This document shows positions 12,782 through 50,106 of a stretch of DNA of 60,839 bases, piece after piece. The number at the start of each line of letters is the position of its first letter. Position 1 is the first letter of the stretch. Position numbers and translations under genes: made by a program. Origin of the DNA: Chloroflexota bacterium (lineage in GTDB: Bacteria; Chloroflexota; Dehalococcoidia; SM23-28-2; RBG-16-64-32); contig JADFQV010000003.1 of the NCBI GenBank assembly GCA_022561635.1, forward strand, positions 1 through 60,839, read 5' to 3'. Under the pieces are notes generated by a model. The model was not told the origin of the DNA. It did not search any database and saw only the letters and a list, made by a program, of their open reading frames with translations.

Positions 12782-12853
12782 GTTAGGCCTCCTTCGTAGG
12801 AGCACAGTATAGCTGTACGGGCGTGAGCCGCGTCGCACCGCGGTGGTAGGTTC

Positions 12854-15473: not shown

Positions 15474-17154
15474 ACCGGTCTCCCTGCCGGGTCGTCGCTC
15501 GCAGCGCGGTGACATGTTGGAGCGCCTCCGCCGCGAGACGTTCGACCTGGCGGTCGTCGGCGGCGGCATCACCGGCGCCTGGGTGGCGCGGGACGCCGCG
15601 ATGCGCGGGCTCAGTGTGGCCCTCGTCGAGAGGGGAGACTTCGCCTCCGGCACCAGCAGCCGCTCGTCACGCCTCATTCACGGCGGCCTCCGCTACCTGC
15701 GCCACGCACACATCAGCCTTGTGCGAGAAGGGCTACGGGAGCGCGGGCGGCTGTTGCGTCTCGCTCCGCACCTCGTGCGGCCGATCGCCTTTACGCTGCC
15801 CGTCTACAAAGGTGGCCGGGACAACCCCCTTCTGATGCGGATCGGTCTGACCGGATACGACCTGATGGCCGGCAAGCTGGGGATGGGCCGGCACCGGGTC
15901 CGGTCGCGCCAACAGTTGATCGAGGATGAGCCCGCCCTGCGCAGCGACGGTCTTCGCTCCGGGTTCCGGTACTTCGACGCGATCACCAACGACGCCCGCT
16001 TGACGCTGGCCCTTGTGCTGTCAGCGACCGACCACGGCGCTGCCGTCGCCAACTACGTCGAGGCCGCGTCGCTCGAGATGACGGGAGGGCGCACCAGCGG
16101 CCTGAACTGCCGCGACATCGTGAGCGGCGACGAGCTGACGGTTCGCGCCCGCTCCGTCATCGGCGCCGCCGGCCCCTGGACAGACGAGTGGCGCGGCAGG
16201 TTCGGTGAAGCCGCCGTCCTGCGTCCGACGAAGGGCATCCACGTGGTGCTGCCGCGCGAGCTACTGCACACGGACTCCGTCGTCGCCTTCTTCTGGCAGG
16301 AGCGGCCGTTGTTCGTCGTGCCGGCCGGGCGCTACAGCTACGTGGGTACGACCGACACGGACTGGTCAGGCGATCCAGGCGGAGTGGAGGCCGACGCTGC
16401 GGACGTCAGTCTGGTTCTCGACGCGATCAACGCCAACTTCAACGTCGAGGTAAGCCCGGCCGACGTGACCTCGACGTGGGCTGGTGTGCGCCCCCTGATC
16501 GCGGACGAAGGCTCGCCTTCGCCATCCGCAGTGTCCCGCGACTACGAAGTCCTCGAGGGCCCTCGGGGCGCTTACGCGATCGTCGGCGGCAAGCTGACGA
16601 ACGCCCGCGCCATGGCGGAGCGTGCCGTCGACCAGGTCGTCGAAGCTGAGGCCGGCGTCCTCTCACGGAGTCCGGCCGGCTGCCGAACGGCGCGCGCGCC
16701 CTTGCCCGGCGCGACCGCGCGCTTCGATCGCTATCGCGCACAGGCCGTCGCTGCTCTCGTCCGTGGCTGGGACATCTCCGACGAGGCAGCGGGGCATCTC
16801 GTGGACACTCACGGCACGGACCACGTGCGGGTGCTGGCTCAGGCCCGGAAGGACCCCGAACTGCTCGAACCCGTTGTGCCGGGCTCGCCGGTACTCCTCG
16901 CCGAGGCTGCGTTCGCGGCGGAGGCGGAGATGGCGGTGAGCCTTGAGGACTTCATGCGCCGCCGCAGCGATCTCATGCTCTTCAGCTCCGAAGCGAGCTG
17001 CGCAGCCTCCGAGCGAATTGCGGCTGTACTCGGTCGGACGCTCGGGTGGAATGAGCACGAAGTCGGCGAGCAGGTGGAGGCGTATCGCATGGCTGTCGGG
17101 CAGATGATGGCGTTTCGGGGCGATCAGACCGACTCGGCACGGTCCGGCCCATGA
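15466..17154 (+). CDS. glpD: FAD-dependent glycerol-3-phosphate dehydrogenase
   Basis: ORF 15280..17154 trimmed to ATG 15466, an 8-nt overlap with the upstream stop. It has the dinucleotide fold DLAVVGGGITGAWVARDAAMRGLSV, the SSRSSRLIHGGLRY block and a GlpD C-terminal domain. Confidence 0.85.
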   Translation: MAEPVSLPGRRSQRGDMLERLRRETFDLAVVGGGITGAWVARDAAMRGLSVALVERGDFASGTSSRSSRLIHGGLRYLRHAHISLVREGLRERGRLLRLAPHLVRPIAFTLPVYKGGRDNPLLMRIGLTGYDLMAGKLGMGRHRVRSRQQLIEDEPALRSDGLRSGFRYFDAITNDARLTLALVLSATDHGAAVANYVEAASLEMTGGRTSGLNCRDIVSGDELTVRARSVIGAAGPWTDEWRGRFGEAAVLRPTKGIHVVLPRELLHTDSVVAFFWQERPLFVVPAGRYSYVGTTDTDWSGDPGGVEADAADVSLVLDAINANFNVEVSPADVTSTWAGVRPLIADEGSPSPSAVSRDYEVLEGPRGAYAIVGGKLTNARAMAERAVDQVVEAEAGVLSRSPAGCRTARAPLPGATARFDRYRAQAVAALVRGWDISDEAAGHLVDTHGTDHVRVLAQARKDPELLEPVVPGSPVLLAEAAFAAEAEMAVSLEDFMRRRSDLMLFSSEASCAASERIAAVLGRTLGWNEHEVGEQVEAYRMAVGQMMAFRGDQTDSARSGP

Positions 17155-24710: not shown

Positions 24711-26501
24711 TCAGGATGCGTTCGGGGCGTCGGCGAGCAGTTCCTCGGGCAAGTCGACCAGCTTGGCGCGCAGGTACTCACCCAGGCTCTTGGCCTGCGG
24801 ATCGGGCCGGGTCGAGGACGAAACGCCCTCGCCGAGCAGACCGACGACGACGAAGTTGAGCGCCCGCAGGTTCGGCAGCTCGTAGCGCAGCACCTCAAGC
24901 TCCCGCGCCTCGCTCACCAGCTCCTTGAAGCGCTCGACCGTCAGGAAGTCCGCTAGCCAGGCGTACGCCGCGTCGTTCCGCGCCCAGACGCCGACGTTGG
25001 CGTTGCCGCCCTTGTCTCCGGAACGAGCGCCGAAGATGGCGCCCAGCGGCTCGCGTGAGGTCGGTCCCGCAGGCACCGCGACAGAGGGCGCGGCGGCGGG
25101 TTCCACGGTCACGCTCTCCTCCGGTTTAGCGGCCGGGACGGGAATCCGCGAGCCGTCATGCGTCACGACCACTTCGTCGATGGCGTCAACGCTCACGAGC
25201 GCCGGCCAGTAGACGCCGAAGGCGTTCTCCGAGGAGAGCCCGGACGCCGTGTGGAACCCTGGGTAGTTGGCGAGCGCCATCTCCACGACTTTCGCCGAAA
25301 ACGCACGGCCGACCTTCTGAGCGTCCTTGTCCTTGACGGTAATCCGCAGGTAGGCGCCGGCTTCCTCGTTCGACTGTGGGTCGTCCTTGTCCGAGCGGGT
25401 GAGCCTGACGTCGACTTCGTCGAACTGCTCCTTGCCTCCCAGCTCAGCGAGCAGCGTCTCCTCCGCCAGCTTCGCCTTCTCCTCGATGTCGAGGCCCGTG
25501 AGGACGAACGTCATCGTGTTGCGGAAGCCGCCCAGGTAGTTGATGCAGACTTTCGTCGTATCGGGAGCCGGCTCGCCGCGCACACCGCTCACGCGAACCC
25601 GGTCGGGCCCTTCCTGCTCCAGCTCGATCGTGTCGAAGCGCGCCACGACGTCCGGGTTCAGGTAGCGCTCGCTGCCGATCTCGTAGAGCAGCTGGGCGGT
25701 GACGGTGCCGGTGGAGACGAGCCCGCCGGTGCCCTCATGCTTGGTCACGATGAACGAACCGTCGTCGTGCATCTCGGCGATCGGGAAGCCGGGATGCTCG
25801 AGCCCCGGCACCTCCTGGAAGAAGGAGTAGTTGCCGCCGGTGGCCTGAGCGCCGCACTCCAGGATGTGGCCCGCGACAACCGAAGAGGCGAGCCGGTCCC
25901 AGTCCGACCGGCCCCAGCCGAAGTGCCAGGCGGTCGGCCCGACGACGACGGACGCGTCGGTGACGCGCGGGGCAATGACGACGTCGGCGCCGCTGTTGAG
26001 CGCCTCGACGATGCCCCATGCGCCCAGGTAAGCGTTGGCCGCGATCGGCTGGATGCCCGCCGCCGCGAGCGGTTGGCCGCTGTCGAGGTGGGCCAGCTCC
26101 TCGCCGCCCGCCTGCAGATCCGGGAGCTTCGCCAGGATGTCGTCGCCTTCGATGTGCGCGATGTTCGCCTGCAGGCCGAGGCCGTCGGAAAGGGCGCGCA
26201 TCCGCGTGGCGAGCGCTGCCGGGTTGAGCCCGCCGGCGTTGGTGACGATCTTGATCCCCTTGTCGAGGCAAGTTCCGAGCACCTCTTCCATCTGCTTCAG
26301 GAACGTCCGCGCGTAGCCGCCCTCGCTGTCCTTCTGCTTCATCTTCCAGAGAATGAGCAGCGTCAGCTCTGCGAGATAGTCGCCCGTCAGGAAGTCGATC
26401 GGCCCGCCCTCGACCATCTCGCGAGCGGCCGAAAGGCGATCGCCGTAGAAGCCGGAGCAGTTGGCGATGCGCAGGACTGGCTTCGCTTCGTTAGCCATCA
26501 C
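24711..26501 (-). CDS. acyclic terpene utilisation AtuA-family protein (DUF1446)
   Basis: 596-aa ORF. The N-terminus LRIANCSGFYGDRLSAAREMVEGGPIDFLTGDYLAELTL is characteristic of AtuA/DUF1446. It is the last gene of the carboxylase operon. Confidence 0.8.
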   Translation of the reverse strand: MMANEAKPVLRIANCSGFYGDRLSAAREMVEGGPIDFLTGDYLAELTLLILWKMKQKDSEGGYARTFLKQMEEVLGTCLDKGIKIVTNAGGLNPAALATRMRALSDGLGLQANIAHIEGDDILAKLPDLQAGGEELAHLDSGQPLAAAGIQPIAANAYLGAWGIVEALNSGADVVIAPRVTDASVVVGPTAWHFGWGRSDWDRLASSVVAGHILECGAQATGGNYSFFQEVPGLEHPGFPIAEMHDDGSFIVTKHEGTGGLVSTGTVTAQLLYEIGSERYLNPDVVARFDTIELEQEGPDRVRVSGVRGEPAPDTTKVCINYLGGFRNTMTFVLTGLDIEEKAKLAEETLLAELGGKEQFDEVDVRLTRSDKDDPQSNEEAGAYLRITVKDKDAQKVGRAFSAKVVEMALANYPGFHTASGLSSENAFGVYWPALVSVDAIDEVVVTHDGSRIPVPAAKPEESVTVEPAAAPSVAVPAGPTSREPLGAIFGARSGDKGGNANVGVWARNDAAYAWLADFLTVERFKELVSEARELEVLRYELPNLRALNFVVVGLLGEGVSSSTRPDPQAKSLGEYLRAKLVDLPEELLADAPNAS

Positions 26502-27277
26502 TCACCTCCGGCCCAGCGCGGCGGCCGCTTCTGCGCGAAGGCCGTCATTCCCTCGAGCGCTTCTTCGGATCCGAAATATTCCGCCGACCACTCAGACGTC
26601 TGCGCGAACGCGTCGTCCAGCGTCATGCCGGGGACTTCGCGGACGAGCCGCTTGCAGCCCCAGAGCGCTCCGGGAGCGCCCTTCAGAACGCTTGCCACGT
26701 AGCCGTTCACCGTTTCGTCGAGCTGCTCCGCGGGCACAGCGGCGTTGAGGAGGCCGCAGCGAGCGGCCTCAGTCGCGTCGAACGTCTCGCCGGTCAGAAA
26801 GAGCTCCATCGCCTTCGTCACGCCCAGCTTGGGGATGATGACGACGGAGATGATCGCCGGAATGAGGCCGAGGCGCACCTCGCTGAAGGCAAACGTCGCC
26901 TCTTCCACCGCGACGGCCATGTCGCAGGCAGCGATCAGGCCGATGCCGCCGGCGCGGGTTGGCCCGCCGACGCGAGCGATCACCGGCTTCGGCGAGCGCC
27001 AGATGGTCTTGAGGATCGTCACCAGGCCGCCGGGGCCCGCGGGCTGTCCGGGCGGGCCGCCGCCGCGCATCTCCTTCAGATCGGCGCCCGAGCAGAAGAC
27101 GGGGCCGGTGTGCGTGAGGACGATCAGCCGCGCCGCGTCGTCGCTGAGCGCCACTTCGAGGCTTGTTTCCAGGCCGCTCATCAGGGCGCGGGAAAGCGCG
27201 TTGCGGTTTGAGGGAGAGTCGAGCGTGATCGTGGCCACGCCGCCTGCGATCTCGAGGTGAACGAGTTCCTCGCTCAT
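26498..27277 (-). CDS. enoyl-CoA hydratase/isomerase (methylglutaconyl-/isohexenylglutaconyl-CoA hydratase-like)
   Basis: ORF 26498..27358 trimmed to ATG 27277, a 4-nt overlap with the upstream stop. It has the crotonase fold (VFCSGADLKE, GGGIGLIAACD). Confidence 0.85.
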   Translation of the reverse strand: MSEELVHLEIAGGVATITLDSPSNRNALSRALMSGLETSLEVALSDDAARLIVLTHTGPVFCSGADLKEMRGGGPPGQPAGPGGLVTILKTIWRSPKPVIARVGGPTRAGGIGLIAACDMAVAVEEATFAFSEVRLGLIPAIISVVIIPKLGVTKAMELFLTGETFDATEAARCGLLNAAVPAEQLDETVNGYVASVLKGAPGALWGCKRLVREVPGMTLDDAFAQTSEWSAEYFGSEEALEGMTAFAQKRPPRWAGGE

Positions 27278-28083
27278 GCTCTCGGCTCCGCGGCGAACTG
27301 GCCGGGCCGGCGACCGGGGCCGGGAGGGCCGGCGAACGCCTGCGCGATCGCGATCCACTCCTTCGCTGCCTCACCGCGCACTTCGAGGTTCGTATCCGCC
27401 ACGTGGCGCCGCTGTGTGGCCACACGGCAGAAGTCCGTAGCCGTGCCGCGAACGACGTCGGCCGCCTCCGGATCGCCGAGCACCCACGTCTCGCCCGAAG
27501 GCGACGTTAGCTCGACGCGGATCGTGGTGTCGGGCGCCTGCTTGCCCCGGACCGAGTAGCTGTACGGCCGCGCCCGGACGCCGATGAACGCCACGTGGCG
27601 CAGGCGGTCGGTGTCCGGCCGGTCCGCCCCGACGGCGTCGACAACGTCCAGGCCGTGCGCCCACGTCTCCATCAGTCGGGCCGTGATGAACGACGCCGGA
27701 CTCATGTCCGGGCCGTACCAGGGCACACGCCCGGCCGGGTCTACGTTTTGCGCGGCGGTGATCAGACTGCTGCTTGCCGAGCGCCACCAGTCCAGGAGCT
27801 CGCCGGCTGTTCCGCCGCGGCCGCGCGCCAGAGGGATCGCTTCGAAATCGCCCGTGTTCTTCATCAGCTCCTCAATCTCCGCCTTGAAGGCGTCGCGGTC
27901 CTGCATCGCCCGCGTGGCGGCCTCATCGAAGTAGGCGAGGTGCGACACCTGGTCTCGCACCGACCAACCCTCAGCGGGCGTCTGCGTGTCCCAGGCCGCC
28001 TCTGAGAGGCGATCGAGCACCTTCCCGAGTGCCGCCTGTTCGGCCGCTAGGTCGTTTACGATCTCGTCCAGCGCGTCGCTCAT
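27274..28083 (-). CDS. DinB/MDMPI-fold metal-binding protein (TIGR03084-like, maleylpyruvate-isomerase N-terminal domain family)
   Basis: 269-aa ORF. WSVRDQVSHLAYFDE and a later H..D motif are typical of the mycothiol-dependent MDMPI_N/DinB superfamily. It is embedded by 4-nt overlaps between the carboxylase and hydratase genes. Confidence 0.65.
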   Translation of the reverse strand: MSDALDEIVNDLAAEQAALGKVLDRLSEAAWDTQTPAEGWSVRDQVSHLAYFDEAATRAMQDRDAFKAEIEELMKNTGDFEAIPLARGRGGTAGELLDWWRSASSSLITAAQNVDPAGRVPWYGPDMSPASFITARLMETWAHGLDVVDAVGADRPDTDRLRHVAFIGVRARPYSYSVRGKQAPDTTIRVELTSPSGETWVLGDPEAADVVRGTATDFCRVATQRRHVADTNLEVRGEAAKEWIAIAQAFAGPPGPGRRPGQFAAEPRA

Positions 28084-30065
28084 GATTCGTCCTTCCCCGT
28101 GTCTACGACCAGCAGCACGTGCCCGGCCTCGACCTGTTCGTCGGCCACGACGCGCACCTCCGTCACGATGCCGTCCTCCGCGCAGGTGATCACGTGCTCC
28201 ATCTTCATCGCCTCGACGATCACCAGCACCTCACCTGCCGTCACCTGCTGGCCGGCGCTGACCTTGACCGACACGATCCGCCCCGGCATCGGCGCCAGGT
28301 AGCCTCCCGCCGTCCGTTCGCGCTCTCGTTCCGGAAAGCGAGGCAGCTCGACCAGCCGAACTTCACCGGCCGGGCTCTGCACCCAATGGTCGGCGCCCTG
28401 ACTGACGACCGAGAGCCTCTGCTGCACGCCGTCGATCTCCAACTCGGTCCAGCCGTCTTCCGAGCGCAAGACACGCGCCTCGCCGCTATGGCCGGCGACT
28501 TCGTAGGTGAATGCGCCGTCGCCTTTTCTGAGGTACTGGGTGAGGACCTCTTCGTCTCGGTGCAGGTAGCGGACCTGCTGCATTGCCGAGGGGTTGTTCC
28601 GCCAGCCGGAGGGAATGGTGGCGAGAGCCCGCGCTTTCGCTCGTCGCGCCCGTTGTGAGGCGAGAGCGGCGGCGAGCGCGGCGGCCCGCAACTGCTCTTC
28701 GCTGACGTCACGCTCGCGAGCCGGGCTGTGGCGCTCGATGAAGTCTGTGGTCGTGTCGGCGGCGATGAAGGCGTCGTGGCGCAGGACGTTCACGAGGAAG
28801 TCCCGGTTCGAGACGATGCCGGGCATTTGCAGCCGCTCGAGGACGGTCGCCAGACGGGACGCCGCCTCGCTGCGGTCGCGCCCGTGCACGATCACCTTGG
28901 CAAGCATCGGGTCGAAGTAGGGCGAGACCTCAGAACCCGCCTCGACGCCTGACTCGAAGCGAGCCGGCAGCGCTGGGTCGGGCCGCCAGGCGATCAGGCG
29001 GCCGGTGGCGGGCAGGAAGTCGTTCGCCGGGTCTTCAGCGTAGATGCGCGCCTCGATCGCGTGACCGTCCATCCGCAGCTCTTCCTGGCGGAAGGAGAGC
29101 GGGGCGCCCTCGGCCACCTTGATCTGCTCGCGGACCAGGTCCAGACCCGTGATCTCTTCGGTCACCGGGTGCTCGACCTGAAGCCTAGTGTTCATTTCGA
29201 GGAAGTAGAAGCTCCCGTCCTTGTCCAGCATGAACTCCACGGTGCCGGCGTTGTCGTAGCCGACGGCCCTGGCGGCTTCGACGGCGGCCTCGCCCAGGCG
29301 GCGTCGCAGGTCGTCGTCCACCGCGGGCGAGGGCGACTCTTCGATGATCTTCTGGTGGCGGCGCTGGATCGAGCATTCCCTCTCGAAGCAATGGACGATG
29401 TTCCCGTGGCTGTCACCGAAGACCTGCACCTCGACGTGGCGCGCCCCCGCCAGGAAGCGCTCCAGGAACACAGTGTCGTCGCCGAAGGCGGCTGCAGCCT
29501 CCCGCCGCGCGCCCGAGACGGCGTCGGCCAGGCCAGCCTCGTCGCTGACGACGCGCATGCCCTTGCCACCGCCGCCGCTCGCCGCCTTGACCAGCAGCGG
29601 GTAGCCAACCTTGGCTGCGCGCTTGCGAACCTCCTTGGTCACGCTCCTGGCGACTCTGACCGACGGCAGGGTCGGGACGTTAGCCTCGGTCATCAGCTTC
29701 TTGGCGGCGAGCTTGTCACCCATCGTGGCGATCGCCTCCGCCCGCGGACCGACCCAGGTCAGGCCAGCGTCGACGACCGCGCGCGCGAAACCCGCGTTCT
29801 CGGCGAGGAAGCCGTAGCCGGGATGTACGGCGTCGGCCTCGGTGCGCCGGGCGGCGGCGATGATCTTCTCGATGTCGAGGTAGGTTTCCTGGCTCGTCGT
29901 GCCCCGCAGCGATACGGCCTGGTCCGCCTCTCGCACGAAGGGAGCGTCCGCGTCGGGCTCGGCGTAAACCGCGACCGTGGCGATGCCCATCTCGCGCGCC
30001 GTGCGCATGATGCGGCGGGCGATCTCGCCCCGTCCAGCGATCAGCAGTCTCGCAATTCGCGTCAC
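28080..30065 (-). CDS. biotin-dependent acyl-CoA carboxylase alpha subunit (biotin carboxylase + BCCP; MccA/AtuF-like)
   Basis: 661-aa ORF with a GTG start. It has an ATP-grasp biotin carboxylase domain (LLIAGRGEIARRIMRTAREMGI, KAASGGGGKGMRVV) and the C-terminal biotinyl-lysine motif EAMKMEH. Confidence 0.9.
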   Translation of the reverse strand: MTRIARLLIAGRGEIARRIMRTAREMGIATVAVYAEPDADAPFVREADQAVSLRGTTSQETYLDIEKIIAAARRTEADAVHPGYGFLAENAGFARAVVDAGLTWVGPRAEAIATMGDKLAAKKLMTEANVPTLPSVRVARSVTKEVRKRAAKVGYPLLVKAASGGGGKGMRVVSDEAGLADAVSGARREAAAAFGDDTVFLERFLAGARHVEVQVFGDSHGNIVHCFERECSIQRRHQKIIEESPSPAVDDDLRRRLGEAAVEAARAVGYDNAGTVEFMLDKDGSFYFLEMNTRLQVEHPVTEEITGLDLVREQIKVAEGAPLSFRQEELRMDGHAIEARIYAEDPANDFLPATGRLIAWRPDPALPARFESGVEAGSEVSPYFDPMLAKVIVHGRDRSEAASRLATVLERLQMPGIVSNRDFLVNVLRHDAFIAADTTTDFIERHSPARERDVSEEQLRAAALAAALASQRARRAKARALATIPSGWRNNPSAMQQVRYLHRDEEVLTQYLRKGDGAFTYEVAGHSGEARVLRSEDGWTELEIDGVQQRLSVVSQGADHWVQSPAGEVRLVELPRFPERERERTAGGYLAPMPGRIVSVKVSAGQQVTAGEVLVIVEAMKMEHVITCAEDGIVTEVRVVADEQVEAGHVLLVVDTGKDES

Positions 30066-30068
30066 CGG

Positions 30069-31700
30069 CTACATCCTGTAGACGCCGTAGCCCTGGGCGC
30101 CCTTGACTTCGTTGCTGTGACAGGCGGAAAGCGTTATCCCAAGCACCGTGCGCGTGTCGCGCGGGTCGATGATGCCGTCGTCGACGACGCGCCCGGTGGC
30201 GTACAGCGCGAGCGAAGCCTTCTCCGTGAAGTCCTCGACCCCGGCCGTGATCATCGCGTCCTCAGCCTCGTTGAACTCTTCCCCCGTTCTGGCGGCCGCA
30301 GCGCGCCTGACGATCGACATGACGCCGGCGAGCTGCTTCGGACCCATGACCGAGATCTTGGCGGTCGGCCACGTGAACACGAAGCGCGTGTCGTAGGCGC
30401 GGCCGCTCATGCCGTAGTTGCCGGCGCCGTAGCTGGCGCCGATGATGACGGTGATGTGCGGCACCTTCGAGTTCGAGACCGCGTTGATCATCTTCGAGCC
30501 CTCTTTGACGATGCCGCCCTGCTCGTAGACCTTGCCCACGATGTACCCCGTGATGTTCTGCAAGAAGATAATCGGGACGTCGATCTGGTTGCAGAGCTGG
30601 ATGAACTGGGCGGCCTTCTGCGATTCGTTCAGGAAGAGCACGCCGTTGTTGCCCAGGATGCCGACTGGGAACCCGTGAATCGAGGCCCAGCCCGTAACCA
30701 GGGTCGGCCCGTAGAGCGGCTTGAACTCCTCGAAGCGTGAGCCGTCAACGATGCGCCCGATTACCTCGCGGATGTCCATCGGCGTGCGCAGATCGACCGG
30801 TAGCAGGCCGAGGAGGTCTTCGCGGTCGTACAGGGGCTCGTCCGGCGGCATCGACGGTCCGGGGCCCAGCTTCCGCCAGTTGAGGTGCGTGATCACGCTG
30901 CGGGCCATGCGCAGGGCGTCGACTTCGTCCTCGGCAAGATAGTCGGCGAGGCCGGACTTCGTGGCGTGAACCTCCGCGCCGCCCAGCTCTTCGGCGTCCG
31001 AGTCTTCGCCGGTCGCCATCTTCACCAGGGGCGGGCCGCCCAGGAACACCTTCGACCGTCCGCGGATGAAGATGTTGTAGTCGGACATGCCGGGCTGGTA
31101 GGCGCCGCCGGCGGTTGAGCTGCCGAAGACGATCGATACCGTCGGGATGCGCATCGCCGAAAGCTCGGTGATGTCGTGGAAGAGCCGGCCGCTTTCCGCG
31201 AAGTGGCCCAGCTGGCGGCGCATGTCGTCTTCGGGCGAGCCGCCGCCGCGCGGCCGCAGATCGGCGCCGGCGGACTCCACGAACTGGATGTAGGGCAGGC
31301 GATTGAGCCGGGCGATCTCCAGCGCGCGGTCGATCTTCTTGCCGACGATCGGCGTGATTGCGCCGCTGATCACGGTCGGGTCGTTGCCGGCGATGATGCA
31401 CTCCACGTCGGCGACCACGCCGATGCCCGTCACGAACCCGCCGCCGACGGCGAAGTCGGTGCCCCAGCCCGCCAGCGGACTGAGTTCGAGGAACGGCGAG
31501 TCGCGGTCGAGGAGCAGTTCCAGCCGCTCGCGCACCATCATCTTCCCTCGCGACCGCAGCCGCTCGACGCTGCGTTCGCCGCCACCCGCCCGGGCCACTT
31601 CGAGCTGCCCGTCGATCTCTTTGAGCAGAGCGCTCATGGCCTCCCGATTCGTGCGGAAGCCCTCAGAGTTGGGGTCGATGCTCGTTTGCCAGCGTTCCAC
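30069..31700 (-). CDS. acyl-CoA carboxylase carboxyltransferase beta subunit (MccB/AtuC-like)
   Basis: 543-aa ORF with a carboxyl_trans domain in two halves (SAGADLRPRGG..., GASYGAGNYGMSGRAY). It is the first gene of the minus-strand operon. Confidence 0.9.
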   Translation of the reverse strand: MERWQTSIDPNSEGFRTNREAMSALLKEIDGQLEVARAGGGERSVERLRSRGKMMVRERLELLLDRDSPFLELSPLAGWGTDFAVGGGFVTGIGVVADVECIIAGNDPTVISGAITPIVGKKIDRALEIARLNRLPYIQFVESAGADLRPRGGGSPEDDMRRQLGHFAESGRLFHDITELSAMRIPTVSIVFGSSTAGGAYQPGMSDYNIFIRGRSKVFLGGPPLVKMATGEDSDAEELGGAEVHATKSGLADYLAEDEVDALRMARSVITHLNWRKLGPGPSMPPDEPLYDREDLLGLLPVDLRTPMDIREVIGRIVDGSRFEEFKPLYGPTLVTGWASIHGFPVGILGNNGVLFLNESQKAAQFIQLCNQIDVPIIFLQNITGYIVGKVYEQGGIVKEGSKMINAVSNSKVPHITVIIGASYGAGNYGMSGRAYDTRFVFTWPTAKISVMGPKQLAGVMSIVRRAAAARTGEEFNEAEDAMITAGVEDFTEKASLALYATGRVVDDGIIDPRDTRTVLGITLSACHSNEVKGAQGYGVYRM

Positions 31701-36442: not shown

Positions 36443-37402
36443 ATGGCGAAGAAGTCCAGGGTGCTCTCGATCGATGGTGGCGGGATCCGGGGTATCATCC
36501 CCGCCGTCATCCTCAAAGAGCTGGAAAAGGCGACGGGCAAGCCGATCGCCCAGTTGTTCGACCTGATAGTCGGCACTTCATCCGGAGGCGTGCTGGCCCT
36601 GGGGCTGGTGATGCCGGGAGAAGACGGCAAGCCGAAATACGCAGCCGACGACGGTGTGAGGCTGTACATGGGTCAGGGCCACCGCATCTTCACTCGCTCA
36701 ACGCTCCACAAAGTGCGCTCGATCTGGAGCGTCGAGGGAGAGAAGTACCCGTCCAGGGGGATCGAGACCGTCTTCCACGAGTACTACGGCGAGGCCCGGC
36801 TCAAGGACGCCATTACGCCGGTAGTCGTGACGAGCTATGAGATCGAGCGCCGCACGCCGTTCTTCTTCAAGAGCGAGCTGGCGAAGTCCGACGAGGCGGA
36901 GTACGACTTTCCGATGTGGCAAGTCGCGCGGGCGACGACGGCGGCGCCGACGTTCTTCGAGCCAGTCGAACTCAACGCCGCCAGCGGGTCCAGGACCTAC
37001 TCGCTGGTCGACGCGGGGATCTTCGTCAACGATCCGGCCATGAGCGCCCTGGCGGAAGCCCGTGCGATGGGTCTCGGCGACGACGTACTGATCGTCTCCC
37101 TTGGCAGCGGCGAATCGACCCACCCCATCCTCTTTGAGAGGGCCGTTGGATGGGGTCTGAGGCAATGGGCGCAGCCCCTCTTTGGCATCAGCTTCGACGG
37201 CACGAGCGCCATCGTCAACTACCAGCTGCGGCAGCTGCTTCCGGAGAATCGCTACTACCGGTTCCAGGCCAAGCTCCACGAAGCCAACGATGCGATGGAC
37301 GACACCAGCTCAACGAACCTTCGCGCGCTTGAGCTGTTGGGACAGAGCATCGTCGAAGAGAACGCCGAGGCGTTTCGGGAGATGTGCGAGCAGCTCTCAT
37401 GA
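36443..37402 (+). CDS. patatin-like phospholipase
   Basis: 319-aa ORF with an oxyanion GGGIRG, the nucleophile motif GTSSG and the catalytic Asp block VDAGIFVNDP. Confidence 0.85.
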   Translation: MAKKSRVLSIDGGGIRGIIPAVILKELEKATGKPIAQLFDLIVGTSSGGVLALGLVMPGEDGKPKYAADDGVRLYMGQGHRIFTRSTLHKVRSIWSVEGEKYPSRGIETVFHEYYGEARLKDAITPVVVTSYEIERRTPFFFKSELAKSDEAEYDFPMWQVARATTAAPTFFEPVELNAASGSRTYSLVDAGIFVNDPAMSALAEARAMGLGDDVLIVSLGSGESTHPILFERAVGWGLRQWAQPLFGISFDGTSAIVNYQLRQLLPENRYYRFQAKLHEANDAMDDTSSTNLRALELLGQSIVEENAEAFREMCEQLS

Positions 37403-37418
37403 CGCCTCCGGTGCGTCT

Positions 37419-38495
37419 ATGACCAGGATGAACGAGCTCGGGTTTTACACGCTCGCCGGGGCCCCAGATACGCCGCGCGATCTGATTGAGGAGGTTCGGC
37501 AGGGCGAGGAGCTGGATCTCGGCTCGGTGTTCATCTCGGAACGCTTCAACATCAAGGAGGCGGCGACGCTATGCGGCGCTGTGGGCGCCGTCTCTACGGA
37601 TCTCGGCATAGCCACGGCCGCGACGAACCACAACACCCGCCACCCGATGGTGACGGCCGCCTTCGCGATGACGATGCACAAGCTCACGGGCGGGCGCTTT
37701 TCGCTCGGCCTGGGCCGGGGCATCGCGCCGCTAATGAGCATCCTTGGCCTCTCTCAGGTCAAGACTGCCGAGATCGAAGACTTCGTGGGTCTCATGCGCC
37801 GCATCTGGCGGGGAGAGGTCGTGATGGGACACGACGGGCCTGCGGGCAAGTATCCGCTCCTCACGATGGGGCCGGAATACAGTGAGCACATACCGATGAC
37901 TCTGACCGCGTTCGGGCCGCGCTCGCTGGCGCTGGGCGGTCGTGCTTTCGACGCCGTCGTGCTCCATACGTACTTCACCGACGAGACGACCGAGCGCTGC
38001 GTTCGGGCGGTGAAGCAGGCTGCCGAAGAGGCCGGGCGGGATCCGGCGAAGGTCCGTGTCTGGTCTTGCTTCGCGACGATCGGCGACCACTTGCCGGCCG
38101 ACGTCCGGCTGCGCAAGACGGTCGGCCGCATGGCGACATATTTGCAGGCGTACGGTGACCTGATAGTGAAGACCAACGGTTGGAACCCCGAGCCGCTCGG
38201 GCGGTTTCGTGACGACGATCTCGTGAAAGGCTTTCGCAGCGCCCTGGACGCGAACGCCACCACGGAGCAGCTTGAGCACGTCGCCACGCTGATCCCGGAG
38301 GAATGGCTCGCCCCGGCGGCGACGGGATCCGCGGAGCAGTGCGCGGAGAAGATATCGGGCCAGTTTGATCTTGGCTGCGACGGCGTGATCTTGCACGGCG
38401 CCAGCCCGGCGGAGCTAGCGCCGATCGTTCAGGAGTACCGAAAACGACGCCCAGCGGGGCGCTTCGATCACCTCGCCGCCAATCCGGCAGGGTAG
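37419..38495 (+). CDS. LLM-class (luciferase-like) flavin/F420-dependent oxidoreductase
   Basis: ORF 37182..38495 trimmed to ATG 37419. The upstream part overlaps the patatin gene out of frame. The TIM-barrel LLM pattern is FISERFNIKEAATLCG ... FSLGLGRG. Confidence 0.8.
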   Translation: MTRMNELGFYTLAGAPDTPRDLIEEVRQGEELDLGSVFISERFNIKEAATLCGAVGAVSTDLGIATAATNHNTRHPMVTAAFAMTMHKLTGGRFSLGLGRGIAPLMSILGLSQVKTAEIEDFVGLMRRIWRGEVVMGHDGPAGKYPLLTMGPEYSEHIPMTLTAFGPRSLALGGRAFDAVVLHTYFTDETTERCVRAVKQAAEEAGRDPAKVRVWSCFATIGDHLPADVRLRKTVGRMATYLQAYGDLIVKTNGWNPEPLGRFRDDDLVKGFRSALDANATTEQLEHVATLIPEEWLAPAATGSAEQCAEKISGQFDLGCDGVILHGASPAELAPIVQEYRKRRPAGRFDHLAANPAG

Positions 38496-41120: not shown

Positions 41121-41609
41121 TTGCCTCACCCCTTACCCGATTCGCAAGTTGAGCGGTTCCTGCGCGGCCGGCACGTCTGCGTGCTTACGACCATAGGCGC
41201 GGACGGCATGCCGTTGCAGACGCCGGTCTGGTATCTGTATCGTGACGGGCGCCTCTACGTGCGGACGAACTCGCTGAGCGCGAAGGTGCGGAACATCTGC
41301 CGTGATCCTCGCGTGAGCTTGTGCGTGCAGGACGAGTACCCGCCCTACCGGGGTGTAACGGTGACGGGGAGGGCCGAGGTGCTGGCGGACGAGCCTGAGA
41401 TATCGGCGAAAATGTCGCGGAACTACCTGGGGGCGATCGCCGGGTTCTTGTACATGCGGCTGCGCTCACGGGCGCAGATAGAGGGTGACCCCGATACAAT
41501 CCTGGTGATTGTTCCCAACGGCAAGCGCGGATGGGACTACCGGCCGCAGACGCCGTTCGTCGGACGTGTGTGGCTGGCGATCAAGCGCGTGCTGCCGCCG
41601 TGGCTATAG
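41121..41609 (+). CDS. pyridoxamine 5'-phosphate oxidase-family / F420-dependent split-barrel protein
   Basis: 162-aa ORF. TTG 41121 is preceded by AAGGAGG. FLRGRHVCVLTTIGADGMPLQTPVWYLY is the typical PPOX-class N-terminus. Confidence 0.75.
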   Translation: MPHPLPDSQVERFLRGRHVCVLTTIGADGMPLQTPVWYLYRDGRLYVRTNSLSAKVRNICRDPRVSLCVQDEYPPYRGVTVTGRAEVLADEPEISAKMSRNYLGAIAGFLYMRLRSRAQIEGDPDTILVIVPNGKRGWDYRPQTPFVGRVWLAIKRVLPPWL

Positions 41610-45233: not shown

Positions 45234-45322
45234 CGGGTCCGGTCCTACGGCAGCGCTGACGCGCTCTAATCGATCCCTAATGTTTGCCGCGTACTCTCTG
45301 GACAGATGGAGGACGGAGAGCG

Positions 45323-46909
45323 ATGACCGGACAACCGATCTCCCGCCGGCGGATGCTCAAGCTGACCGCGACGACGGGACTGGCGGTGGCGGCGACGGCG
45401 CTGGTGGGCTGCTCGGACGATGGCGTGACCGTCCCCGCGGGCGAAGGCGAATCAGTGGGTGACGCCAGTTCCACCGGTGGCGCGGCGTCCGTCGTCGAGG
45501 CAACAGCGGCCGACCCGCGGGCGTTGCCCATCCCGCCACGGCTGGAAGGCCCGGTCATCGATCTGACGATGCAAGCTGGCGAGCGCGAGTTCCTGCCGGG
45601 GGTGCGGACGCCGACCAAGGGCTACAACGGCGATTACCTCGGGCCGACGCTGGTCTTGCGGGCCGGGAGCGACGTCAACCTCAACGTGACCAACGACATC
45701 GGCGTTTCCACCACGACCCACTGGCACGGCATGCACGTGCCGGCGGTCATGGATGGCGGCCCCCATCAGAGCATCGAGCCTGGAGAGACGTGGCACGCCT
45801 CGTTCCCGGTGCTCAACCGCGCCGCCACCTACTGGTACCACCCGCACCCCCACGCCGGACAACGCCAGGGGGCGCTCTTCGATCCGATGTCGACGGGCTA
45901 CCAGGTCTATGAGGGGCTCGCGGGCATGATCATCGTCGAAGACGACCTATCGGACGCGCTTCCCTTGCCACGGTCGTACGGAGTCGACGACATTCCGCTG
46001 ATCCTCCAGGACAAGCGGTTTCATGACGACGGCTCGCTGATGCATTTTCCTGACGACTTTGACGCCGCGACGGATCCGGCGCTCCGCAAGGGCGATCACT
46101 TCCTGGCCAACGGTGTCGACGACGCGGTCCTCAATGTCGGTGCCCAGGTGATTCGCCTGCGCGTGCTGAACGCCTCGAACGCTCGCATCTATAACCTCGG
46201 CTTCAGCGACGACCGAACCTTCTATCAGGTGGCCTCAGACGGTGGGTTCCTCGCTTCTCCCGTACCCTTGTCGCGACTGGTCATGGCGACGGGCGAGCGG
46301 GCCGAGATTCTGGTCGATCTGGGCGCTGACGAAGGCCGGACGCTGGCCCTGCGCAGCTTCAACGGCGGGAATGACAGGACGTTCGTTCCGCCGCAGCTTC
46401 AGGATGCCTGGGACACCACCGATTTCGACCTGCTGGAGATTCGGATCGGCAGTCCCACAGCCGACGCTGTCCTCACCATCCCCGAGCGCCTGACCGACCT
46501 GCCCCGCGTACCTGAGTCCGACGCCGTGAACTCTGAGAGCCCAAGGCCTTTCGTGCTTGGCGTCAACCCCTTCGAAATCAACGGAGTGGGCATGGACATG
46601 GCGGTGATCAACGAGCGCATCCGTCTCGGCGACACCGAGGTCTGGGAAGTCTCGAACCCCAACCAGCAGGCCCATCCCTTCCACGTGCACGGCGACTCGT
46701 TCCAGATCGTGTCGCGAGATGGCGCTCCCCCGCCCGCCAACGAGCTCGGCTGGAAGGACGTCGTGCTGCTCCGCCCCCGCGAGACCGTGCGCCTCATCAA
46801 GAGCTTCCGCGACTACGCGGATCCCGGCACCCCGTACATGTACCATTGCCACATCCTCGAGCACGAAGACGTGGGGATGATGGGGCAATTCGTGGTGGAG
46901 GAAGTTTGA
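45323..46909 (+). CDS. multicopper oxidase (CueO/laccase-like), Tat-exported lipoprotein
   Basis: ORF 45284..46909 trimmed to ATG 45323, with GGAGGACGGAGAG upstream. It has the Tat motif SRRRML and lipobox LVGC. The four copper motifs are HWHGMH, WYHPHPH, HPFHVHG and HCHILEHEDVGMM. Confidence 0.9.
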   Translation: MTGQPISRRRMLKLTATTGLAVAATALVGCSDDGVTVPAGEGESVGDASSTGGAASVVEATAADPRALPIPPRLEGPVIDLTMQAGEREFLPGVRTPTKGYNGDYLGPTLVLRAGSDVNLNVTNDIGVSTTTHWHGMHVPAVMDGGPHQSIEPGETWHASFPVLNRAATYWYHPHPHAGQRQGALFDPMSTGYQVYEGLAGMIIVEDDLSDALPLPRSYGVDDIPLILQDKRFHDDGSLMHFPDDFDAATDPALRKGDHFLANGVDDAVLNVGAQVIRLRVLNASNARIYNLGFSDDRTFYQVASDGGFLASPVPLSRLVMATGERAEILVDLGADEGRTLALRSFNGGNDRTFVPPQLQDAWDTTDFDLLEIRIGSPTADAVLTIPERLTDLPRVPESDAVNSESPRPFVLGVNPFEINGVGMDMAVINERIRLGDTEVWEVSNPNQQAHPFHVHGDSFQIVSRDGAPPPANELGWKDVVLLRPRETVRLIKSFRDYADPGTPYMYHCHILEHEDVGMMGQFVVEEV

Positions 46910-47847
46910 TGCGCGGTCGAAGGATTCGACTACTGCTGTCTATCCCTCTGGGCAGCCTCGTCGTCGCCGTCGGGTTGGCGGCGTGTAGTACGGACGAGGC
47001 GGCCCCGGACGACACGCCAAGCACGGGCCCCACGGAAGCCCCCACCGAAACTCCTGCGCAAGCGAGTTCCCCCGTCGACGACGGCACGCCAGTTCCCGCG
47101 GCGACGGCCGCCGACAGCCATCTCACCTTCGACGGTCTCGATGACCGCGTGCTTGTGCCGTGGGATGCGTCGTTCCCCACTGAAGTCTTCACCGTCTCGG
47201 CCTGGATTCGGCTTCCGCAACCACCCGGCCAGCGGGCAGCGATCATCGCCCGCGGCGAGGACGACGACTCCTTCAATCTGAGCTGGCAGCTATACGTCGG
47301 ACCCGAGGGCGACCTGACGGCCATGCTCGAGGCGTCCAACGAGAACAACTACTGCTACCCGGCCAACGATTGCGTTCCCTTCGGCAGCTGCGAGTCGGGC
47401 GATCTCTTCGTGGCCGACGGGGCGTGGCACCACGTCGCGCTCACCCGGGACGAGAGCGGAGAACTCGTCTTCTACATCGACGGCCAGGAGCGCGCCCGCT
47501 GCCAAGGCACCGGCACTCCGTCGAGCAACAACCAGCAGTTCCTTAGTTTCGGCGCCACGCACGGTTCGGTCGGCCGGCTTCCCGCCGGCGCCAAGGAGCC
47601 TCCGGTTTGGTTCCTGCCCGGCGAGATCGACGATCCCGCCATGTGGAACAGGAGCCTGACGGCGGCGGAGATCGAGGCAGTGCAGCGGGACGGGGTCGAC
47701 CCGGCGTCGCCCGGACTGGTCGGCTTCTGGAGCCTGGACGAAGGGCAGGGGCAGGACGTACACGACCTCTCGCCGGCGCTCAACGATGGCTACCTCGGCG
47801 CGAACCCAGACGCCGACTCCGCCGATCCGGCCTGGACCCCAGCCTAG
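46909..47847 (+). CDS. LamG / concanavalin-A-like lectin-domain lipoprotein
   Basis: ORF 46846..47847 trimmed to ATG 46909, which overlaps the oxidase stop (TGATG). It has a signal peptide with lipobox LAAC. The LamG-like core is FTVSAWIRL...GAWHHVALT...LVFYIDG...EIDDPAMWNRSLTAAEI. Confidence 0.7.
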   Translation: MRGRRIRLLLSIPLGSLVVAVGLAACSTDEAAPDDTPSTGPTEAPTETPAQASSPVDDGTPVPAATAADSHLTFDGLDDRVLVPWDASFPTEVFTVSAWIRLPQPPGQRAAIIARGEDDDSFNLSWQLYVGPEGDLTAMLEASNENNYCYPANDCVPFGSCESGDLFVADGAWHHVALTRDESGELVFYIDGQERARCQGTGTPSSNNQQFLSFGATHGSVGRLPAGAKEPPVWFLPGEIDDPAMWNRSLTAAEIEAVQRDGVDPASPGLVGFWSLDEGQGQDVHDLSPALNDGYLGANPDADSADPAWTPA

Positions 47848-47980
47848 CTGTTCGCGCCGACTGCTGGTCGCTCTCAGGTCCGCCTCCGTCGGCGGGCGGC
47901 GCCAGAAAGAGTGGCTCTTCGCCCCATTTTCATGCGGGAGTACAGCCTAAGGCGGTATTATTCGGCCAGGAGGAGAGCAC

Positions 47981-48646
47981 ATGGCCACGGAACCGGAACC
48001 TCGCATGAAGTTCGACTGGCGGTCTATCACGCCAGAAGACTCGCCGAAGACGCCCATCGACACCATGAAGGATCCGGAGTTGAGAGATCTGGCGACGCCG
48101 AAGCTGAGCGTCGGCGACCCGGCCTTCGACATCGAGCTACCGGCCTACGACTTCAGCGATGGCAGCGAGCGTCTCACAGATGAAACGTTCCACCTCTCGG
48201 CGATCGCCCGCGACCAGCCGGTGGCCCTCATCTTTGGCTCCTACACCTGACCGCCGTTCCGGGCCCAGTTGGGATCCCTACACGAGCTGTGGGAACGGTA
48301 CCGGGATCGCGTGGCGTTTTGCGTCGTTTACATCCGCGAGGCCCATCCGGAGGAAGGTTGGGTGCTGAGCACCAACCGGGATATGGATATCCGGGTAAAC
48401 GATCCAACCACCGACACCGAGCGCCATGACGTCGCTGTCGCCTGCAGCCTGCGCTTGAACATCCGGATGCCGGTGGTGATTGACGCGATAGACGATAAAA
48501 TCGCTCGCGCCTATGGAGCCCTTCCCGATCGTCTCTACCTGATCGGCAAGGGTGGCCGCGTCGCGTTCCAGGGCGGGCCGGGGCCGGCCGGGTTCCGCCC
48601 GCACGAGCTTGAGCGGGCGATCGAAGAGGAGCTCTCCCTCCAATAA
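47981..48646 (+). CDS. iodothyronine-deiodinase-family thioredoxin-fold protein, predicted selenoprotein (Sec encoded by TGA 48248..48250)
   Basis: ORF-track entries 47981..48250 and 48269..48646 are in one frame, separated only by TGA. Read-through gives FGSYT-U-PPF, VYIREAHPEEGW, DMDIR, PVVIDA and YGALPDRLYLIGKGGRVAFQG, which match deiodinase blocks. AGGAGG lies 7 nt before the ATG and a hairpin follows the TGA. Confidence 0.75.
48254..48298 (+). promoter_or_regulatory. candidate bacterial SECIS-like stem-loop downstream of the in-frame UGA
   Basis: The hairpin is GGGCCC-AGUU-GGG(AU)CCC at 48261..48278, starting 10 nt after the UGA. The apical tetraloop has G at its second position. It is enclosed by helix CCGUUCC (48254..48260) / GGAACGG (48292..48298). 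Folded by eye only. Confidence 0.4.
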
Positions 48647-48762: not shown

Positions 48763-50106
48763 ATGGTACCGCGAATTCAGTACGTCAAGGCCAGCGACGG
48801 GGTCAGCATCGCCTACAGCCAAGCGGGCGACGGCCCGGCCTACGTCGCGCTCAACGACATTCCGTTCAGCCATATCCAGCTCGAGGAACAGTACGGGGTG
48901 GGATTTCAGCCGCTGCATGAAGCGATCGGTGGAAGGTTCGTGCGTCTCGATCCGCGCGGCATGGGGATGTCAGACCGCGAGGTGGATCGGATTACAATCG
49001 ATGCTTGGGTCTCCGATCTAGAGGCAGTCGTCGATCGGCTGGAGCTGGACCAGTTCGTCCTCGGTGGCAGCGGATTCAGCGGCGTGATCGCGATATCCTA
49101 CGCAACACGGCATCCGGAGCGCGTCTCCCGCCTCACACTGCTGAACGCGCCCGCGCGACCGGCCGACGCTTTCGCAGCACCCGCCTCTCAGTCCCTGGCT
49201 GAGATGCTCGTTCGCGATTGGGAGATGTTCTCCGAAAACGTGGGCGCACTCGCTTTCGGCTGGGGGCGAGACCAGGCCAGAGTGTTCGGAGAGTACGTAA
49301 GGGCCTGCTCAACCCAGGAGCTGGCGCGGCGAACCTACGCTGCGCTGGTGTCCATGGACGTGACTGAGCTCCTTCCCAGCCTCACGATGCCGGTTTTGGT
49401 AATAAGTCACGACGGGGTCAAGTACGCGCCGCTCGATCTGTCGAGGCACCTCGTGTCGGATATCCCGGATGCGCGGCTCGTCGTCATGGAGGGCGTGATG
49501 GACCTCGAGCCGATTTTCAAGCAGGTCGCTGAGTTCGTGATGGAGGGCCGCGAGGAGGAGCCGGAAGCCGATCACGTCGAGCCCGGCGCCTTCCGCACGA
49601 TCTTCTTCACGGACATCGAAGGGTCCACGGAGCTGACCGAGCGACTGGGTGACGCCAAGGCGCGAGACTTCCTACGTGAGCACGAGCGCATCACCCGCGA
49701 CGCCCTGGCCAAGCACGGCGGCGCCGAGATCAAGACGATGGGCGACGGCTTCATGGCCTCGTTTTCGTCCGCGACGAAGGCTCTGGAGTGTGGGATCGGG
49801 CTTCAGCGAGCCTTTGCTCAATACAACGAGTCCGCGCCCCAACCGATCAAGGTGAGAGTCGGACTGAACGCGGGCGAGCCGATCGCCGAAGACGATCCGG
49901 AGGGGCGCGGCGATCTGTTCGGATCGGCCGTGAACCTCGCAGCCAGAATCTGCTCGCGTGCCGAAGGCGGTGAAATCCTCGCCTCGGAAGGGGTTCGGCA
50001 GATCGTGGCGGGAAAAGGATTCCTTTTCTCGGACCTCGGCGAGTCAGAGATGCGGGGATTCGAAGACCCGGTGCGGGTCTATGCAGTGCGCTGGCAGGCG
50101 AGCTAA
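48763..50106 (+). CDS. alpha/beta-hydrolase domain fused to class III adenylate/guanylate cyclase
   Basis: 447-aa ORF. The N-terminal roughly 270 aa have the alpha/beta-hydrolase fold. The C-terminal cyclase domain has FRTIFFTDIEGSTELTERLGD, IKTMGDGFMASF and FGSAVNLAARI. Confidence 0.85.
   Translation: MVPRIQYVKASDGVSIAYSQAGDGPAYVALNDIPFSHIQLEEQYGVGFQPLHEAIGGRFVRLDPRGMGMSDREVDRITIDAWVSDLEAVVDRLELDQFVLGGSGFSGVIAISYATRHPERVSRLTLLNAPARPADAFAAPASQSLAEMLVRDWEMFSENVGALAFGWGRDQARVFGEYVRACSTQELARRTYAALVSMDVTELLPSLTMPVLVISHDGVKYAPLDLSRHLVSDIPDARLVVMEGVMDLEPIFKQVAEFVMEGREEEPEADHVEPGAFRTIFFTDIEGSTELTERLGDAKARDFLREHERITRDALAKHGGAEIKTMGDGFMASFSSATKALECGIGLQRAFAQYNESAPQPIKVRVGLNAGEPIAEDDPEGRGDLFGSAVNLAARICSRAEGGEILASEGVRQIVAGKGFLFSDLGESEMRGFEDPVRVYAVRWQAS

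Follow-up and report, generated by a model that had tools for sequence, protein, structure and literature searches.

A deiodinase-like gene of a Chloroflexota bacterium with an in-frame UGA codon and a downstream hairpin: a predicted selenoprotein

The window analysed in this work (the whole stretch of 60,839 nucleotides from a Chloroflexota bacterium, with a G+C content of 63-69%) carries on its forward strand a single reading frame that runs from ATG at 47981 to TAA at 48644-48646 and is broken only by TGA at 48248-48250. In the open reading frame (ORF) list this frame appears as two entries: the TGA is followed by six sense codons (PPFRAQ), and the second entry begins at the next codon, TTG at 48269. 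Reading through the TGA gives 222 codons, i.e., 221 residues with selenocysteine (Sec) counted. A preliminary description of this DNA had joined the two entries into one 221-residue frame split by the TGA, had placed a Shine-Dalgarno sequence ahead of the ATG, and had taken the "M" of the second entry for an internal TTG. The layout and the coordinates of the frame were confirmed directly from the sequence, as was the Shine-Dalgarno element with its short spacer; the TTG proved to be the codon of Leu97, located inside the loop of the hairpin described below. The same description had predicted that standard annotation would split the gene, and public gene callers do cut the homologues into pieces of 89-92 aa and about 125-130 aa. 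The features of the locus are collected in Table 1.

Base composition is of the coding type on both sides of the TGA (GC3 0.81 in the first half and 0.75 in the second, versus GC2 of 0.47 and 0.43), and tblastn matches in relatives cross the TGA, spanning residues 1-220 of the read-through protein. A six-frame scan of the whole window detected no other credible in-frame TGA between coding-like stretches, and a scan around the deiodinase-like gene found no promoter or terminator. TGA is an ordinary stop codon in the source genome, where 16 of the 40 window genes with Pfam support end in it; the deiodinase-like genes of the 87-locus set defined below likewise close with TGA in 45 cases. The 16 window genes that end in this codon speak against a reassigned code in which TGA would stand for Trp or Gly, and that reading was rejected.

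Table 1. Coordinates of the gene and its predicted functional elements in the window
Feature	Position	Strand	Basis
Shine-Dalgarno sequence AGGAGG	47968..47973	+	7-nt spacer to ATG 47981; read directly from the sequence
Complete CDS of the predicted deiodinase-like selenoprotein	47981..48646	+	221 residues, Sec at position 90, stop codon TAA; translation, Pfam, PDB matches, AF2 model with Foldseek, tblastn
Active-site motif F85-G-S-Y-T-U-P-P-F93	48233..48259	+	Invariant in 87/87 loci; aligns with Dio3 FGSCT-U-PPF
UGA codon predicted to be read as selenocysteine (Sec90)	48248..48250	+	TGA in 87/87 loci; Cys in 73/77 distant homologues; aligns with Dio3 Sec170
Putative bacterial SECIS hairpin	48261..48278	+	GGGCCC 48261-48266, loop AGUU 48267-48270, GGG 48271-48273, 2-nt bulge AU, CCC 48276-48278
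TTG taken as start of the second ORF; Leu97 codon in the putative SECIS apical loop	48269..48271	+	Translation and ORF layout; TTG/TTA in 69/69 sequences with Leu here
Y117-IREAHPEEG-W127, edge of the deiodinase-specific insertion (loop-D)	48329..48361	+	4tr3 alignment; invariant in 87/87 loci
Cys155 (TGC), candidate resolving cysteine, in predicted helix 145-158	48443..48445	+	Present in 87/87 Sec-type loci; helix from the AF2 model
Arg184 of the D-R-L-Y motif	48530..48532	+	Aligned with Dio3 Arg275; invariant in 87/87 loci

For Pfam scoring of the read-through protein, Cys was substituted at the TGA. The match to PF00837 (T4_deiodinase), the family to which the preliminary description had assigned the gene, scored 97.9 bits (cutoff 27, E 7.5e-28) and covered profile positions 100-234 of 237. 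Sequence matches in the PDB included mouse Dio3 (4tr3, E 1.8e-20) and Dio2 (9h48, E 4.1e-18), and in these alignments the TGA falls on the catalytic Sec170 of mouse Dio3 and on the catalytic Sec of Dio2 (both are Cys in the crystallised mutants), which bears out the earlier statement that the UGA sits at the Sec position of the vertebrate deiodinases. The further sequence blocks that had been lined up with the vertebrate enzymes fared less evenly: YIxEAHPxxGW and ERLY..G...YxGG.GP do align, but "DMDIR" falls in the variable loop-D and is not conserved with the vertebrate DIOs. An AF2 model of the protein was obtained with pLDDT 82.9 and pTM 0.82, and a Foldseek comparison with the PDB placed the predicted fold closest to 9h48 Dio2 (TM 0.79) and 4tr3 Dio3 (TM 0.74), the next-ranked neighbours being thioredoxin-like, ResA/DsbE and peroxiredoxin folds. 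A marginal match to AhpC-TSA (PF00578) was also recorded (28.8 bits, cutoff 26); the canonical motif PxxxTxxC is absent because Thr89 immediately precedes Sec90. No N-terminal transmembrane anchor was found: residues 1-45 are hydrophilic (MATEPEPRMKFDWRSITPEDSPKTPIDTMKDPELRD...) and the AF2 model is devoid of a long N-terminal helix. Membership in NCBIfam NF038285 (deiodinase_rel, a 347-residue model) was rejected because the score of 191.4 bits falls short of the curated 250; the match is confined to model positions 181-340, so that the C-terminal 160 residues align and the long N-terminal part of that family is missing from the window protein.

When 5.8 billion proteins were searched, mainly C-terminal fragments of 121-133 residues were returned (67-98% identity), and every homologue contig that was fetched contained an ORF of 89-92 residues immediately upstream of the C-terminal fragment and in the same frame. 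With GTDB species represented by one genome each, a scan yielded 308 relatives, of which the best 80 loci were examined. These best 80 of 308 belong to Chloroflexota (which include the closest relatives, 83-86% identical), Pseudomonadales/Azotimanducaceae, Myxococcota, Gaiellales and other Actinomycetota, Acidimicrobiia, Eisenbacteria, and others. In the set of 87 loci, the window gene included, the codon is TGA without exception and lies within an invariant FGSYT-TGA-PPF; the Sec form was encountered in at least 80 GTDB species, soil Actinomycetota and Chloroflexota among them. Protein conservation is strong in both halves, no other stops or frameshifts occur in these 87 loci, and PPFRAQ between the two ORFs is invariant or nearly so at the protein level. 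An exhaustive HMMER search gave 2,599 cluster representatives, 77 of the full-length ones including the Sec site, and among these more distant proteins Cys occupies the Sec column in 73. A check at the DNA level found the codon TGC in full-length relatives with Cys in the TGA column (L087 and L088) and TCA in one form with Ser at the site, and the "Trp" of two JGI gene calls turned out to be TGA. The wider family recovered by HMMER also contains fusions with AhpD/CMD-like CxxC domains and EF-hand fusions, the latter having been described for deiodinase-like proteins in a 2021 study.

A single in-frame stop is the expected appearance of a pseudogene, and gene callers treat the locus as such; in what used to be a Cys-type gene, the TGA could then have arisen recently by nonsense mutation or reflect an error of sequencing or assembly. 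However, the same TGA is present in all 87 loci, which come from several phyla and were assembled independently, both flanks are strongly conserved as protein with no further stops or frameshifts, and the RNA structure downstream co-varies (see below). We consider this explanation effectively refuted by the conservation of the TGA and assign it practically no probability; the preliminary description had likewise judged a random nonsense mutation very unlikely at this residue. Hardly more credible is the arrangement given in the ORF list and in public gene calls, namely two genes that encode an 89-residue protein and a 125-residue protein starting from TTG 48269. The split would fall within the catalytic motif FGSYT-U-PPF of one domain, the TTG has no ribosome-binding site and is a fixed loop codon of the hairpin, the intervening PPFRAQ is conserved as protein, and Cys-type homologues are single polypeptides; the two halves were never found as independent genes, whereas the preliminary description would have been refuted by homologues with separate halves and no conserved residue at the TGA position. 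Together, the conservation of the TGA in homologues and its use as an ordinary stop rule out a pseudogene, two separate genes and a reassigned code.

The hairpin that had been noted 10 nt past the UGA is located at 48261-48278 and covaries across the family. The stem at 48261-48266 pairs with 48271-48278, giving 6 bp with a bulge, and in an alternative register the loop is AGUUG with one C.A mismatch. Published criteria for bacterial SECIS elements (bSECIS) call for a loop of 3-9 nt, a stem of 4-16 bp, G in one of the first two loop positions, a distance of 16-37 nt from the UGA and an MFE of -7.5 kcal/mol or lower. The window hairpin falls within all of these ranges, with 16 nt from UGA to loop, G as the second loop base and a local MFE of -7.7 kcal/mol, the energy only just so; the MFE cutoff is passed by 82 of the 87 family members, and few family members have a weaker hairpin than the window. 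Folding of the window sequence alone gave no gain in stability over shuffles for the 63 nt (z -0.05) or the 121 nt (z +0.42) that follow the UGA, so the significance of the hairpin comes only from the comparison with its relatives.

Among 81 distinct sequences, C19, A20, G21 and T23 (numbered from the U of UGA) are invariant, and the stems are wholly exchanged between lineages (GGGUUC/GAACCC, CGCGCCC/GGGCGCG, CGCCGGC/GCCGGCG, GGAUCC/GGAUCC, and CUCCC/GGGAG). RNAalifold recovers the helix with compensatory changes at 3 of 5 pairs. In both registers, all 500 shuffles gave lower values for the covariation score and for the number of double-change cells, with the caution that the sequences are related to one another and that two registers coexist in the family (loop AGUU or AGUUG/A); some members also have bulges. 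At the protein level, the residues flanking an invariant Gln-Leu co-vary in such a way that pairing is kept (R-V-QL-E-P, R-A-QL-G-A, R-R-QL-P-A, R-S-QL-G-R). The loop Leu is encoded by TTG or TTA in all 69 sequences with Leu at this position, compared with 13.5% TTR among the other Leu codons of the same genes, and the CAGUUG loop is absent from the TGC homologues. Rfam searches of the whole window at gathering thresholds produced no match, and a permissive scan of 48150-48400 produced only two at chance level (a microRNA and a lncRNA). The hairpin resembles the E. coli fdhF-type SECIS recognised by SelB in its in-frame position directly past the UGA, in a small apical loop that has G followed by U some 20 nt away, and in the bulged stem of some members; it differs in that its sequence is unrelated, no Rfam model matches it, and the putative loop AGUU(G/A) is encoded by Gln-Leu codons.

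Genes for Sec decoding were sought in the available DNA. A tRNA search of the 60.8-kb window found none, and no tRNA-Sec was found in 60 related loci. With E. coli SelA, SelB and SelD as queries, tblastn searches of the window together with related loci totalling 1.2 Mb gave nothing beyond a single GTPase-domain match of 25% identity in L081, and a Pfam scan of about 49 window ORFs detected no selenium-metabolism gene. This outcome is one point for a rival reading in which the UGA is read through without selenium, either by a Trp or Cys tRNA acting as near-cognate or through a recoding peculiar to the lineage, and in which the hairpin would do no more than delay the ribosome or keep release factor 2 away. 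UGA followed by C, the context found here, is a leaky stop in E. coli, and some gene callers translate the Sec site as Trp. On the other hand, both the spacing and the G-containing loop of the hairpin agree with the SelB-type SECIS model, the homologues swap in Cys and never a genuine Trp codon, the vertebrate enzymes carry their catalytic Sec at this position, these genomes use TGA as a normal stop, and the literature classes the family as a selenoprotein. Chloroflexi are known from the literature to include Sec decoders. We regard read-through without selenium as quite improbable.

The locus at 47981-48646 is thus very probably one gene in which UGA 48248 is read as Sec and the hairpin at 48261-48278 is a bacterial SECIS element; its product would be a soluble, cytoplasmic protein of 221 residues in the iodothyronine-deiodinase (PF00837) branch of the thioredoxin/peroxiredoxin fold, with Sec90 as the nucleophile and Cys155 as a candidate resolving cysteine. 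By analogy with the Sec pathway established in bacteria, and given the conservation seen here, SelB.GTP.Sec-tRNA(Sec) would bind the hairpin and deliver Sec to the ribosome, and if delivery failed, translation would end after 89 residues. Sec90, at the N-terminus of the predicted helix 92-107, would serve as the catalytic nucleophile, flanked by Ser87, Thr89, Tyr117, Glu120, His122, Trp127 and Arg184, which match the relay and clamp residues of Dio. These seven residues are invariant in 87 of 87 loci, and their Dio3 counterparts in the 4tr3 alignment are Ser167, Thr169, Tyr197, Glu200, His202, Trp207 and Arg275, respectively; the proton-relay and substrate-clamp (Arg275) roles in Dio3 are themselves proposals (PMC11592359). 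The proton relay is incomplete in the window protein, since the equivalent of Dio3 His219 is Asp141.

Cys155 is a candidate resolving cysteine on the strength of its conservation. Besides its presence in all Sec-type loci, it is Cys in 59 of 77 distant full-length homologues and is displaced by 1-3 residues in several others; it is absent from some Cys-type homologues, and it is not a counterpart of the distal cysteine in Dio3, Cys239, whose aligned residue here is Met163. An oxidised selenium (Se-X or Se-OH) would probably be resolved by Cys155 to a selenenyl-sulfide, and the enzyme may then be recycled by a general thiol reductant, as no dedicated partner gene is conserved alongside. Neighbour clustering in the 87 loci revealed no partner gene conserved beyond single lineages, which argues for a stand-alone enzyme recycled in this way and means that no operon clue to function is available.

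The best guesses for the substrate would be a phenolic compound from which halogen is removed reductively, or a peroxide or disulfide. A rival that concerns the chemistry only, and not the identity of the gene, is that the selenoprotein is a peroxiredoxin-type enzyme or a thiol-disulfide oxidoreductase with no dehalogenase activity. The weak AhpC-TSA match, the many Foldseek matches to ResA, DsbE, Prx and BCP, the second conserved cysteine, the AhpD/CMD-like CxxC-domain fusions in the wider family, and the redox role favoured by the authors of the 2005 study (Zhang et al., PMC1088965) all speak in its favour. The invariant Dio-specific insertion together with Glu120, His122, Trp127 and Arg184 would be unexpected in a plain peroxidase, however, and the canonical Prx motif is missing; we give this rival somewhat less than an even chance. 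Atypical 2-Cys peroxiredoxins and BCP (PF00578) share with the window protein a thioredoxin-type fold, a nucleophile at the start of helix 1 and a second conserved cysteine as well as the marginal Pfam match, but the window protein, lacking PxxxTxxC, has the deiodinase insertion and a far higher score for PF00837. It is also conceivable, if unlikely, that the Sec-type bacterial proteins are true thiol-dependent, cobalamin-free reductive dehalogenases of iodinated or brominated phenolic metabolites, and the functional and structural ancestors of the vertebrate deiodinases. We keep this proposal open because of the invariant Glu120, His122, Trp127 and Arg184 and the spread of the family in marine and soil bacteria.

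Vertebrate DIO1-3 (4TR3, 9H48) and the window protein have in common the Sec motif FGS-x-T-U-PPF, the Tyr, Glu, His and Trp of YIxEAHPxxGW, the Arg of ERLY, the Dio insertion and the overall fold. The identity is about 28%, the N-terminal membrane anchor is missing from the window protein, and its SECIS element would lie inside the coding region and not in the 3' UTR; thyroid hormones are not an expected substrate. In comparison with Dio3, Cys168 is replaced by Tyr88, in addition to the changes at His219 and Cys239, and the insertion has 5 more residues.

In 2005, Zhang et al. (PMC1088965) described deiodinase-like selenoproteins from bacteria of the Sargasso Sea, together with their bacterial SECIS elements and Cys homologues, and 22 Sec and 21 Cys forms of the family were reported from the GOS data by Zhang and Gladyshev in 2008 (PMC2398784). 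Reviews of 2022 and 2026 (PMC9312934, PMC13188914) list the family with its function given as unknown, and neither Zhang et al. nor a review gives a demonstrated activity for any bacterial member. The published proteins are like the one described here in belonging to PF00837, in having an in-frame UGA at the catalytic position with a SECIS just downstream, and in having Cys homologues. The window gene is an ordinary member of this selenoprotein family described in 2005, and its novelty is low because such proteins have been in print since then. Two differences from the published accounts may be pointed out. The reviews tabulate a redox motif "UxxC" and the GOS table none, whereas all 87 loci examined here have U-P-P-F, with the second conserved cysteine (Cys155) located 65 residues past Sec. 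Furthermore, the published Sec sets are small and marine (4 and 22 sequences), in contrast to the GTDB species counted above.

For annotation purposes, 47981-48646 should be entered as one gene and not as two fragments or a pseudogene, and hundreds of public records carry the same error. The family is the bacterial counterpart of the thyroid-hormone deiodinases. It offers experimentalists a widespread Sec form (TGA in 87 of 87 loci), a well-defined, covarying putative SECIS and an invariant Cys155 to mutate.

Parts of the window are 82-89% identical at the DNA level to three contigs, L007 and L009 (both labelled as Chloroflexota MAGs) and L008. ABC-transporter genes directly adjoin the deiodinase-like gene in L007 and L008. 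Relative to these two contigs, the window has an extra gene on each side: a multicopper oxidase plus LamG-domain gene upstream (45284-47847) and a hydrolase-cyclase fusion downstream (48763-50106).

The motif of the deiodinase-like selenoprotein is tabulated as 'UxxC' in two reviews (PMC9312934, PMC13188914), while the table of the GOS survey (PMC2398784) gives no motif for it. In contrast to the reviews' entry, all 87 Sec-type loci read U-P-P-F at this position with no Cys at +3, and the second conserved Cys of the Sec-type sequences is located 65 residues downstream of Sec.

Two public JGI gene calls, P0025 and P0028, carry Trp at the Sec position. The P0025 codon was checked in the DNA of its locus and found to be TGA, and thus the JGI gene caller used a TGA=Trp code for that contig; the Trp of P0028, as judged from the alignment, would likewise be a TGA read as Trp. 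A Ser variant, protein P0019, was found in two soil-metagenome relatives (L090 and L091), in which the TCA at the Sec codon differs from TGA by one base. The perfect hairpin CGCCGGC-AGUU-GCCGGCG, the same as in the TGA-bearing locus L063, is still present beside the TCA, and P0019 is missing the elsewhere invariant Cys155, the candidate resolving cysteine. It is possible that P0019 represents a copy that was inactivated or repurposed recently.

The wider deiodinase family comprises 2,599 cluster representatives (E<=1e-3). Many fusions of 400-900 residues belong to it, as seen among proteins P0125-P0223. EF-hand fusions in this family have been described previously (PMC9402790). Based on that description and on reading of the sequences by eye, the fusions are putatively arranged as an N-terminal EF-hand-like region, then a Cys-type deiodinase domain (FGNFTCGPF), frequently followed by a C-terminal CMD/AhpD-like domain that contains CxxC.

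The contigs most closely related to the window, L007 (a Chloroflexota MAG) and L008 (labelled 'uncultured bacterium'), share ~87% nucleotide identity with it. In both, the deiodinase-like gene is directly adjoined by ABC-transporter genes, whereas the window carries two additional blocks, one on each side of the gene (see table). These are likely lineage-specific insertions in the window or deletions in the relatives.

Among the other window genes, the ImuB-like and DnaE2-like pair is the usual damage-inducible mutagenesis cassette, and the minus-strand set that includes AtuA is an acyclic-terpene/leucine-catabolism-like cluster. The quinone reductase, luciferase-like monooxygenase and PNPOx-like protein may form an F420-linked enzyme set; such a set would be in keeping with a physiology of the Chloroflexota or Actinomycetota-like kind. 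For the FAD-linked oxidase and the glycerol-3-phosphate-oxidase-like gene, the longest-ORF calls share ~190 nt, and the true start of the latter is probably downstream of its longest-ORF start.

Coordinates of codons at the Sec position and of window genes
Feature	Location	Remark
TGA called as Trp (P0025)	L089 1291-1293	DNA check
TCA (Ser) at Sec codon (P0019)	L090 629-631; L091 629-631	soil-metagenome relatives
ImuB-like Y-family polymerase domain protein (PF00817)	window 6110-7276	
DnaE2-like DNA polymerase III alpha subunit	window 7476-10715	after ImuB-like gene
F420H2-dependent quinone reductase	window 12359-12838	
FAD-linked oxidase	window 13797-15473	longest-ORF call
Glycerol-3-phosphate-oxidase-like gene	window 15280-17154	longest-ORF call
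AtuA, enoyl-CoA hydratase, DinB/MDMPI-like protein, biotin carboxylase (methylcrotonyl-CoA carboxylase alpha type), carboxyltransferase	window 24711-31700	minus strand
Luciferase-like monooxygenase	window 37182-38495	
PNPOx-like protein	window 41121-41609	
Multicopper oxidase and Laminin_G_3 protein	window 45284-47847	upstream extra block
Alpha/beta-hydrolase fused to adenylate/guanylate cyclase	window 48763-50106	downstream extra block
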